Positions 2,665 through 3,703 of a stretch of DNA of 20,000 nucleotides are shown here, piece after piece. The DNA is from an uncultured virus (IMG/VR IMGVR_UViG_3300017978_000236) (lineage: Duplodnaviria; Heunggongvirae; Uroviricota; Caudoviricetes; Crassvirales): the IMG/VR virus record IMGVR_UViG_3300017978_000236; one strand, given 5' to 3'. The notes under the pieces were generated by a model that was not told the origin of the DNA, did no database searches, and saw only the letters and a program-made list of their open reading frames with translations. The first letter of the stretch is position 1; the number at the start of each line of letters is the position of its first letter. The translations under genes were made by a program, and so were the position numbers.

Positions 2665-2704
2665 TGGTAGGCGGGGAATCGAACCCCAATTTACCTTACC
2701 TACC
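2665..2704 (-). ncRNA. tRNA-like minihelix (acceptor stem plus T-arm only)
   Basis: Minus strand reads GGTAGGT-AAGGTAAATT-GGGG-TTCGATT-CCCC-GCCTACC-A: 7-bp acceptor-like stem, canonical T-loop, no D or anticodon arm. Confidence 0.6.
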
Positions 2705-2705
2705 T

Positions 2706-2741
2706 ATATAAAAAGTCCCTACTAAATTAATAATAGGGACT
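2706..2741 (-). terminator. Intrinsic terminator
   Basis: Minus strand AGTCCCTA...TAGGGACT stem followed by TTTTATATA. Confidence 0.7.
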
Positions 2742-3173
2742 AATTAAATTATAAAATTCGCACCTATATACGTGCGGTTTTGTGACTGTGAATGTATATT
2801 TTTAACCCTGCTTTATGCGGGTTTGATTAAAAACTAATCAAGAACTATTGACTATAAAAAATCCTTACCTATATTGATGCTGCACAAATGTATTAATACA
2901 CTTGCCTACTATGCAGCGGTAAGCCTTAGGACTACGCGCAAATACAACCTAGTAATTTTTTAAAATTTGCGTTTGTTGTAGGGTTTAAAATAGCCTTATT
3001 TTTGCTATTCACCTACCAAAATGTCTATTCACTTTATTTTTAATTTAGTCACATTTGTAAACTAAAAAAACCTTATATATTTTTGAGCTATTGCCACAAA
3101 AACGGGTTAAAAATAAGAGGTAAAAAAAGAACGTGCGCCAAACTCTTCAGCATTGACTTAATGGCTGTCAATG
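2742..3173 (-). ncRNA. Candidate large structured ncRNA
   Basis: No ORF in the track; at least 9 complementary segment pairs including long-range and crossing ones (see findings); bounded by a ribozyme cleavage site and a terminator. Confidence 0.55.
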
Positions 3174-3199
3174 GACGGGTAAAAAAACCCGTTTCGAAA
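3137..3199 (-). ncRNA. Type II hammerhead ribozyme with loop-I pseudoknot
   Basis: Minus strand: C-GAAA, stem III CGGGT/ACCCG, GTC cleavage triplet, stem I CATTGAC/GTCAATG, core CTGAAGA-G; loop I GCCA complementary to downstream TGGC. Confidence 0.85.
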
Positions 3200-3703
3200 T
3201 TATTTTTTAGATGCTAAAATAAAATTAATTGCTTCTTTATAGTTGCATTTTCTTTTTATTGTAGTTGTTACAATTTTTTGTACTAATTGAGCAAAAAAGT
3301 ACTCACTATATTGTCCCGTTTTTGAAACTCGAACGTTTTCAATAACAAAATTAAATAACTCTTCATTTTTTAAGTTTTTATCTTTATCCAATTGAGTTAC
3401 AAAATTTATAAATTTAATTGCCTCTTCTATTGCATTCAAATTTTCAGCATAAGAGTACCCCTCGATTTCGATATTCTTAACTATTGTTTTTGTATTTAAA
3501 AAAACCGCATAAGGGTTTAATTTATCAAGTTTTCTTTGTTTACTAACAACGTGCGCAAATTGTGGGTTTAGTTGTCTTTTTTGTCTTAACCTTTCTTTTG
3601 TAGCTTCAGCGATTTGCTCTTTTGTTAATTCTACAATGTTTTCGATTTGTGCGTTTTTAACTTTTGCGTTTTTAACTTGTGAATTGTTTTTTGAATTTCT
3701 CAT
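3200..3703 (-). CDS. Hypothetical basic helical protein, first gene of the leftward transcription unit
   Basis: 167-aa ORF; stop codon immediately followed by the hammerhead. Confidence 0.85.
   Translation of the reverse strand: MRNSKNNSQVKNAKVKNAQIENIVELTKEQIAEATKERLRQKRQLNPQFAHVVSKQRKLDKLNPYAVFLNTKTIVKNIEIEGYSYAENLNAIEEAIKFINFVTQLDKDKNLKNEELFNFVIENVRVSKTGQYSEYFFAQLVQKIVTTTIKRKCNYKEAINFILASKK

Follow-up and report, generated by a model that had tools for sequence, protein, structure and literature searches.

A boxA-bearing leader with twin hairpins and a tRNA-like minihelix beside a small basic protein gene in phages of putative Flavobacteriia hosts

Layout and genomic setting of the locus

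The DNA analysed here (the window) is a stretch of 20,000 nt from an uncultured virus. It is AT-rich and encodes GroEL and GroES; structural genes lie to the right and small genes to the left of about position 3700, and GC skew switches at this region together with gene direction. On the minus strand, a candidate promoter is followed in order by the gene of a basic protein, boxA-type motifs with twin hairpins, a folded body, a terminator, a minihelix and an early gene (Table 1). A first-pass annotation made from the sequence had described the region past the gene as ORF-free and densely paired, and this was borne out, since no minus-strand ORF of 40 aa or more lies across 3199-2628 (the sole ORF of that size is a 44-aa TTG frame on the plus strand) and 2660-3210 folds with a z of -4.6. 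The leader interior without ribozyme, terminator and minihelix has a z of -2.3 and its opposite strand one of -3.3, so that the energy of folding by itself does not tell which strand is the RNA.

Table 1. Features called at the locus, with the basis of each call
Feature	Position	Strand	Basis
Candidate Bacteroidota-type -7 promoter element TATAGTTA	3804..3811	-	two mismatches to TAnnTTTG; putative
167-aa basic all-alpha protein, candidate twin-hairpin binder	3200..3703	-	ORF, relatives, structure model, pI
Type II hammerhead ribozyme	3137..3196	-	core pattern, covariation
boxA 5' piece CACGTTCTTT	3126..3135	-	host 16S-leader boxA begins CACGTTCAT
Stem-closed domain holding both hairpins and joining the boxA pieces	3032..3117	-	minimum-energy folds; 3117-3107 pairs with 3043-3032
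Hairpin 1, putatively boxB-like; U bulge, cap RC-AAN(N)-GY	3079..3103	-	cap rule, covariation
Hairpin 2, same cap as hairpin 1	3044..3066	-	cap rule, covariation
Worn boxA AGTGAATAGACATTTTGG	3016..3033	-	whole boxA at this place in L179, L182, L183
Folded leader body with several covarying hairpins	2745..3015	-	conserved within subtype only
Intrinsic terminator-like hairpin and U tract	2709..2741	-	terminator call; hairpin 2741-2714
tRNA-derived minihelix, candidate RNase P / RNase Z site	2664..2705	-	fixed-rule pattern
First gene of early operon	2442..2627	-	ORF call; 38 nt after minihelix

Several further elements were observed in the window. A peptidase gene (phrog_4191; 369-1424, minus strand) belongs to the early operon, and GroEL and GroES are encoded on the other arm (6361-8192, plus strand). 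A 54-nt AT-rich element is present in two intergenic copies with 93% likeness (1774-1827 and 5513-5566); both contain a 23-nt tandem repeat and adjoin a TA run. A 24-nt tandem repeat lies at 3862-3916, upstream of the candidate promoter. The small basic gene at 1843-2046 (minus strand), whose product has the N-terminus MRRRINIRV, has look-alikes as the first or an early gene past the minihelix in most relatives, and its product is a second candidate partner of the leader RNA.

The Bacteroidota-type -7 promoter consensus is TAnnTTTG, and this sequence is found close upstream of the gene in most relatives; the block TGTTAAAGTTT that precedes the candidate -7 element of the window also precedes the perfect TAnnTTTG of L124 and L132 (related loci carry L numbers). 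TGTTAA motifs stand ahead of the promoter in many relatives. Another TAnnTTTG match lies inside the leader (2885-2892, minus strand), with similar sites in L123, L126 and L130 and none in L124, L129 and L132, and sites of this type may act as inner promoters in some subtypes. The promoter and boxA sequences, a homologue in Cellulophaga phages and one genome match point to Flavobacteriia as the host group. The GroEL is about 40% alike to that of many phages, including the Flavobacterium elemo and immuto phages, and this likeness alone does not place the phage.

The gene does encode a basic protein of 167 aa, as the first-pass annotation had read it, with a pI of 9.7 (family median 9.9, 41 sequences). 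The protein is predicted to be all-helical (model pLDDT 88), and 18 close and 25 wider relatives were found, with partial overlap between the two sets. It has no Pfam or PHROG family and in NCBIfam only a weak match below the cut-off. It is not a member of the N family; the N-type profiles in Pfam, PHROG and NCBIfam do not match it, and it shows no arginine-rich motif. Fold searches with the model gave no PDB match and no clear fold match, the sole match being an unnamed viral protein (A0A516LQP5), and the ESM Atlas gave no usable match. Among GenBank phages there was no match to the window protein or to P0028, and DNA matches were at chance level only. A shorter form of the protein, with the C-terminal motif K-x-G-x-[YF]-S in common (hhalign 85-90%), was found in the cultured Cellulophaga phages phi38:1, phi40:1 and Calle, and a prophage search found the gene in one of 401 genomes of the host order, which is the order holding Flavobacterium. 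Mimicry of sigma-70 region 2 was considered and not supported, the structure matches (Z 3.6-4.7, rmsd about 4-5) being within noise and the profile probability 0.3%, and the short form gives this likeness no backing either.

Constant and variable parts of the leader in related loci

Protein searches gave 14 related loci, then three more and later one more (L439), and L003, which has a short protein, came from the hammerhead scan. There is no downstream sequence in L134 and only 288 nt of it in L125, and L133 ends within the minihelix. The proposal of an RNA downstream of the gene led one to expect it in homologous loci as well, and 500-700 nt without conserved ORF do follow the gene in every locus with enough sequence. 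The parts hold to one order and spacing even where the proteins are no more than about 30% alike. In L439, which was found after the model had been set, the promoter and gene are followed at about +96 by the 5' piece of boxA; then come a repeated hairpin with a cap peculiar to this locus, the 3' boxA piece in worn form and, near +590, a straight minihelix ahead of the next gene, which is the usual one. Leaders of different subtypes have only short, exchangeable blocks in common, which argues against one conserved RNA class, and an attempt to fold subtypes A, B and C into a single consensus on a MAFFT alignment was unsuccessful, the cores giving only 4 consensus pairs. A scan for a split boxA with a hairpin gave 102 stretches; as L398 (same contig as L125) alone among them carried the protein and the hammerhead, no protein-free copy of the module was found.

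Past the gene a pair of short motifs is found in locus after locus, and in L179, L182 and L183 the two adjoin without a gap. Scored against a profile of the Flavobacterium rrn boxA, the best site of the window, both strands included, is 3033-3016, at 13.5 bits with 7.4 for the runner-up; it has 3 mismatches in 18 to the host rrn consensus. The split boxA pair of the window scores 20.1 against 19.1 and 18.3 for chance pairs on the other strand, and because this is little above chance the case for boxA rests on the relatives. The 5' piece lies 64-101 nt past the stop in 15 of 18 loci, and in five of the 18 a whole boxA (0-2 mismatches) is found 190-246 nt past the stop. A stem-closed insert parts GTTC from AGACATATTG in L125, L126, L130, L131 and L133, and the sequence of L125 looks like the host leader boxA opened by such an insert. 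Among 25 Flavobacterium-genus 16S loci, 23 have the leader boxA ACACGTTCATAGACATATTG or a near form of it and 22 the spacer copy AAGTTCATTGACATATTG, and the place of the Flavobacterium rrn boxA agrees with that of boxA in E. coli and Bacillus as given in PMC13753749. A 16-mer from L182 and L183 matched at least 121 genome stretches, nearly all Bacteroidota; among the 121 matches listed, 66 have a 23S start on the stretch, 5 are too short and 49 have no rRNA nearby, and an Rfam check of 20 listed stretches placed 12 directly ahead of 23S. A complete Sphingobacterium genome has 7 exact copies of the 16-mer, and some of the exact copies without nearby rRNA may be other Nus targets in Bacteroidota. 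On these comparisons the leader of the window appears to carry a worn copy of the host rRNA boxA signal. The NusB-NusE complex reads 8 nt of boxA, while N binds boxB (PMC3177189), so that the 5' piece might serve alone.

The twin hairpins lie between or directly ahead of the boxA motifs and form a repeated pair with a subtype-specific cap, which differs from the loop of lambda boxB. A strict rule for them, derived from the loci on which it was scored, finds 19 hairpins in 11 of 18 loci (50-260 nt past the stop, 3,780 nt in total), and elsewhere 6 in about 200 kb, five of these further down the same leaders. By the same rule there are two only in the whole window, none in 37 kb around host boxA sites, and none in seven of the 18 loci or in three short-form loci of other layout; a looser rule gives one in each of 15 loci scored. 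A repeated site with a cap that varies by subtype has the look of a protein-specific site, and judging from sequence it is possible that the 167-aa protein is an N-like binder of the twin hairpins. The closing stem 3117-3107/3043-3032 is absent from the centroid fold of the window and present in the centroid for L123, L125 and L130-L133.

Double changes were seen in 26 of 61 predicted pairs of the leader (5 sequences, about 3 independent lineages), and in a second set, with few independent sequences, in 15 of 88. The body is about 68-70% identical to L124, L129 and L132, much as the gene is. The covariation by which the first-pass annotation had proposed to judge the RNA is thus present within subtypes, but no single fold was found across the three subtypes aligned. 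The Rfam scan of the window and related loci found no large-RNA family (GOLLD, ROOL or other), and Rfam assigns nothing to the region, hammerhead included. The RNA is thus a member of no Rfam family, and at the outset it could not be assigned to a known class either.

The hammerhead was correctly placed within 4 nt of the gene by the first-pass annotation. Its core starts at C3196, three bases past the stop, with GAAA at 3195-3192, GTC at 3176-3174 and CTGAAGA at 3150-3144 in type II order, a stem II of one base pair and a pseudoknot of four pairs between loop I and the 3' tail (3165-3162 with 3140-3137); the predicted cut falls between 3174 and 3173. Against an expectation of 0.02, the window has one occurrence of the core pattern. 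Pairing extends to 97.6% of cells in 7 related copies, with double changes at 10 of 18 pairs and none of 500 shuffles as high; stems I and III are 100% and the pseudoknot 89% paired, and one pseudoknot pair has double changes. Rfam gave no hammerhead match at E up to 1 in the window, nor at the gathering threshold in 16 loci. Type II hammerheads with a one-pair stem II and the pseudoknot have been described and are active (PMC3088659), and the full core, the open one-pair stem II and the pseudoknot between loop I and 3' tail are found here too. There is no structural difference to that type; the Rfam model does not score the present copy, and its context is new. The hammerhead was found in 5 of 17 long-form relatives and in L003, with plain hairpins at that place in the others, and is an accessory, optional part. 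Type II hammerheads are abundant in viral contigs (at least 122 stretches), and a scan for the subtype gave 40 stretches, mostly chance. The same subtype follows other short genes in L140 (1470-1850) and L159, where the 167-aa protein is not nearby, and downstream of it are a minihelix in L140 and a boxA in L159.

The intrinsic terminator noticed in the first-pass annotation was called as well, and a compensatory change in its hairpin was seen in L128 and in an RNA contig. A terminator lies 31-131 nt before the T loop in 8 of 16 loci of the long-form layout and in all three short-form loci of other layout; none was found in the remaining 8 of the 16. Of the tRNA shape that had been ascribed to the minihelix, the acceptor-like stem (6 bp) and the T arm (5-bp T stem with TTCGATT loop) stand, together spanning 2704-2666, but a D arm, an anticodon and an encoded CCA are all lacking, and neither ARAGORN nor Rfam calls a tRNA. 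ARAGORN also calls no tmRNA, and the Rfam tmRNA match is confined to the T arm (15 nt) and scores 13.3 bits, where the cut-off is 47. Among 21 loci, the window counted in, 15 have the minihelix by a fixed rule, as does 1 of 420 shuffled regions; of the six loci without a match, two are on truncated contigs and four have a looser copy, recognised by eye. The next start codon is usually 22-42 nt further on. The counterpart in L309 keeps a D arm and has a tRNA score of 50.7 bits, and since this element at the same place scores as tRNA the minihelix is best read as an eroded tRNA. Bacterial RNase P is described in PMC5499578 as cutting hairpin-like phage RNAs. An attP-type copy of a tRNA 3' half is out, the 5' acceptor strand changing together with the 3' strand. 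Other observations at this end of the leader are a small hairpin directly past the minihelix (2650-2661, minus strand; compensatory changes in L124, L129 and L132), a near-invariant block of ~70 nt with a second T-loop-like hairpin between terminator and minihelix in L123, L130 and L133, and, in L309, tRNA-scoring elements with swollen anticodon arms at 2973-3052 and 3906-3985, each ahead of a start codon.

RNA contigs were available from four metatranscriptome runs of freshwater, which date from 2025, bear four study codes and may stem from one campaign. The runs were picked by words of this stretch among RNA runs only; the contigs cover a small share of the stretch at a depth of 2-8 and do not give strand or ends. 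In all four runs near-identical contigs, matching over their full or almost full length, lie within 2786-3157 (2786-2932 with 3007-3157; 2798-3137; 2806-3139; 2882-3147). None crosses the hammerhead cut, and they end 16-36 nt short of it, which is a weak hint at self-cleavage. The protein gene is met by one 35-nt chance piece only and the upstream region is uncovered. In the matching subtype the gene has 91% likeness to that of the window and would pass the 85% alignment limit; the lack of cover on gene and upstream region alone shows nothing. A contig of a relative spans the terminator, the minihelix and a different next gene. The contigs thus hint weakly at a stable leader RNA and at read-through.

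A proposed antitermination and processing leader, and other explanations

Hammerhead and terminator are present in 5 of 17 and 8 of 16 loci only and so do not make up the core of the system. A discrete RNA, for which the first-pass annotation had given 3173-2706, is plausible in the window with ends at 3173 and about 2709: the ribozyme and the terminator are real, and the contigs lie inside it. Its ends are not shared by all relatives. The constant parts are the boxA motifs, the twin hairpins and the tRNA-derived helix, and these point to Nus-dependent antitermination and processing. That the region serves the early operon as a nut/rrn-like antitermination and processing leader, where the protein may bind the hairpins in the manner of N, is to us about an even call; the phage would then probably borrow the host rRNA transcription machinery for read-through into its early genes. 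Host RNA polymerase would start at the promoter, the protein being made first, and the hammerhead, if present, would cut the translated message past the stop and leave the nascent leader free of ribosomes. Host NusB-S10 would load on a boxA that is either intact or brought together from its two pieces, and the twin hairpins would be bound by the phage protein; the polymerase modified in this way would resist Rho over the long untranslated stretch and pass the terminator into the early genes. Cuts by RNase P and RNase Z at the tRNA-like helix would give the early mRNA a fixed 5' end and leave a stable RNA of ~465 nt. The loading of NusB-S10 and the protein, and the resulting Rho resistance and read-through, are the least certain of these steps.

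This antitermination reading is favoured by the whole boxA in relatives, the match to the host rrn boxA and the zone-specific twin hairpins, by the boxA placed straight behind promoters in other loci and in phi38:1, by the layout of L439, which was as predicted, and by the relative's contig over terminator, minihelix and next gene. Against it count the worn and split boxA of the window, the loci in which the terminator was not found, and the strict hairpin missing in 7 of 18 loci and three short-form loci. The leader is also far longer than a nut site needs, with a body conserved within subtypes, and its RNA seems to accumulate. Lambda N is a short unfolded protein with an arginine-rich motif, unlike the present protein, which is predicted to be folded and lacks the motif. 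For rRNA, moreover, the main role of the Nus factors may be folding (PMC5725501), which also speaks against the reading; according to the same source Nus factors alone block Rho, and lambda needs N for full antitermination. We further put forward, tentatively and as rather unlikely, that Flavobacteriia phages have an N/nut-like system of their own, in which a new folded family would act at a boxA split by a two-hairpin site and re-formed by folding, the ribozyme would uncouple translation, the eroded tRNA would punctuate the early message, and the 465-nt RNA, once released, might persist as a NusB-S10 decoy against host rRNA synthesis.

The stable RNA of ~465 nt might instead act in trans, alone or with the protein, its boxA serving rRNA-like transcription and folding or making it a NusB-S10 decoy that damps host rRNA synthesis. 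This is possible if doubtful. It agrees with contigs of all four runs inside the leader and none on a gene that would have been detectable, with two ways to set each end across relatives, and with the kept leader length and covarying body; large phage RNAs of unknown function, often near tRNAs, are also known from GOLLD and ROOL (PMC12286853). On the other hand, leaders of different subtypes have short exchangeable blocks only in common and three cores give 4 consensus pairs, in phi38:1 the leader reaches the gene's start codon and it is only past the gene that terminator and minihelix follow, and the RNA runs were few-fold deep and picked by words of this very stretch. An RNA acting in trans and an antitermination leader are not exclusive, because termination and the RNase P cut leave nearly the same 465-nt RNA. 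HK022 Nun switches termination on at lambda nut sites, and the same anatomy would equally suit an autoregulatory attenuator, in which the protein binds the twin hairpins 3' of its own gene, turns termination on and limits early expression. A like-capped hairpin, seen by eye, in the 5' leader of L123 and the ability of Nus factors to repress genes via boxA (PMC5725501) fit such a device; we hold it to be quite unlikely, in that a lytic phage should gain from fast expression of its early operon and no integrase or repressor was recognised among 11 window proteins scanned.

A patchwork of mobile or decayed pieces (hammerhead, dead tRNA, promoter leaders) without joint function would be in line with the abundance of type II hammerheads in viral contigs and with the blocks swapped between subtypes, but order and spacing are kept across proteins ~30% alike and the stems covary, which makes it very unlikely. 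Both GC skew and gene direction switch at this region and its opposite strand folds as well, so the hairpins might act as DNA, as an origin, a genome-entry signal or operators for a DNA-binding protein at the point where transcription diverges; this we judge highly improbable, since the hammerhead, the boxA, the T loop and the G-U pairs would be meaningless except as RNA of one strand and phi38:1 has the same parts rearranged around the gene.

Relation to known systems

The region is real and conserved, and it is apparently an undescribed early-operon module of Flavobacteriia phages; a search of mainly open-access literature found no description of it and no account of boxA in Bacteroidota phages. 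If our reading is true, the Bacteroidota boxA gains a phage mimic, and the protein adds a new family of candidates for antitermination or RNA binding that have no clear fold match; it would also give a reason for hammerheads sited directly past stop codons and a series from tRNA to minihelix as mRNA punctuation. A cultured test system exists, as phi38:1 has a distant form of the protein and the same parts rearranged, in the order promoter, whole boxA, second promoter, boxA-like motif, leader of about 600 nt, gene, terminator, minihelix-like element and early genes; the leader reaches the start codon of the gene, and terminator and minihelix are found only 3' of it. A boxA directly after a promoter is also seen in L135, L136 (in both at the promoter of the gene) and L159. 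Lambda has the orders pR-cro-nutR-tR1 and pL-nutL-N-tL1, of which the order in the window resembles the former and that in phi38:1 the latter. The distance from nutL to N in lambda is about 200 bp (PMC5725501), and six phage ncRNAs have been reported in phi38:1 (PMC5335546). In the Flavobacterium phage elemoB (L308, about 1010-1090, minus strand) a hammerhead-like core of another permutation was seen by eye before the first early start codon.

The boxA of the host rrn operons, the site of the Nus/SuhB/S4 complex, has the Flavobacterium sequence that recurs in the module, whole in some relatives; several relatives have the TAnnTTTG promoter upstream, and here too boxA precedes a long untranslated RNA and a tRNA-like element; in contrast to rrn, no rRNA follows, the window copy is worn, and phage-specific hairpins and a protein are present. 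The P4 CI, P1/P7 C4 and phi80 M3 RNAs are phage substrates of RNase P (PMC5499578), which the minihelix resembles as a hairpin-like element of a phage transcript open to a possible cut by host RNase P; they are antisense regulators without a T loop, whereas the minihelix keeps its T loop, is tRNA-derived and stands directly ahead of a start codon. GOLLD and ROOL, whose function is unknown, share with the present leader a long folded phage RNA beside tRNA-like sequence (PMC12286853); here there is no Rfam match and no long-range fold across subtypes, and the RNA is tied to a protein gene and to boxA.

From E. coli phages a protein-dependent form of processive antitermination is known, which acts at nut sites. 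The HK022 put RNA is a folded early-leader RNA upstream of terminators that acts with no Nus factor, phage protein or boxA; the present leader is alike in being folded and early and in preceding a terminator, but boxA is present and Rfam gives no match. The likeness extends further to lambda N/nut and to Gp17/nut of mEp021 as described in PMC11893012, with a boxA motif by hairpins with A-rich loops, an adjoining gene for a small basic protein and a terminator before the early genes. The module differs from a lambda-type nut site in its Bacteroidota boxA, which is split or doubled, in having two hairpins and not one, in the 500-700-nt leader, in a protein predicted to be folded and helical without arginine-rich motif, and in the hammerhead and tRNA-like helix attached to it.
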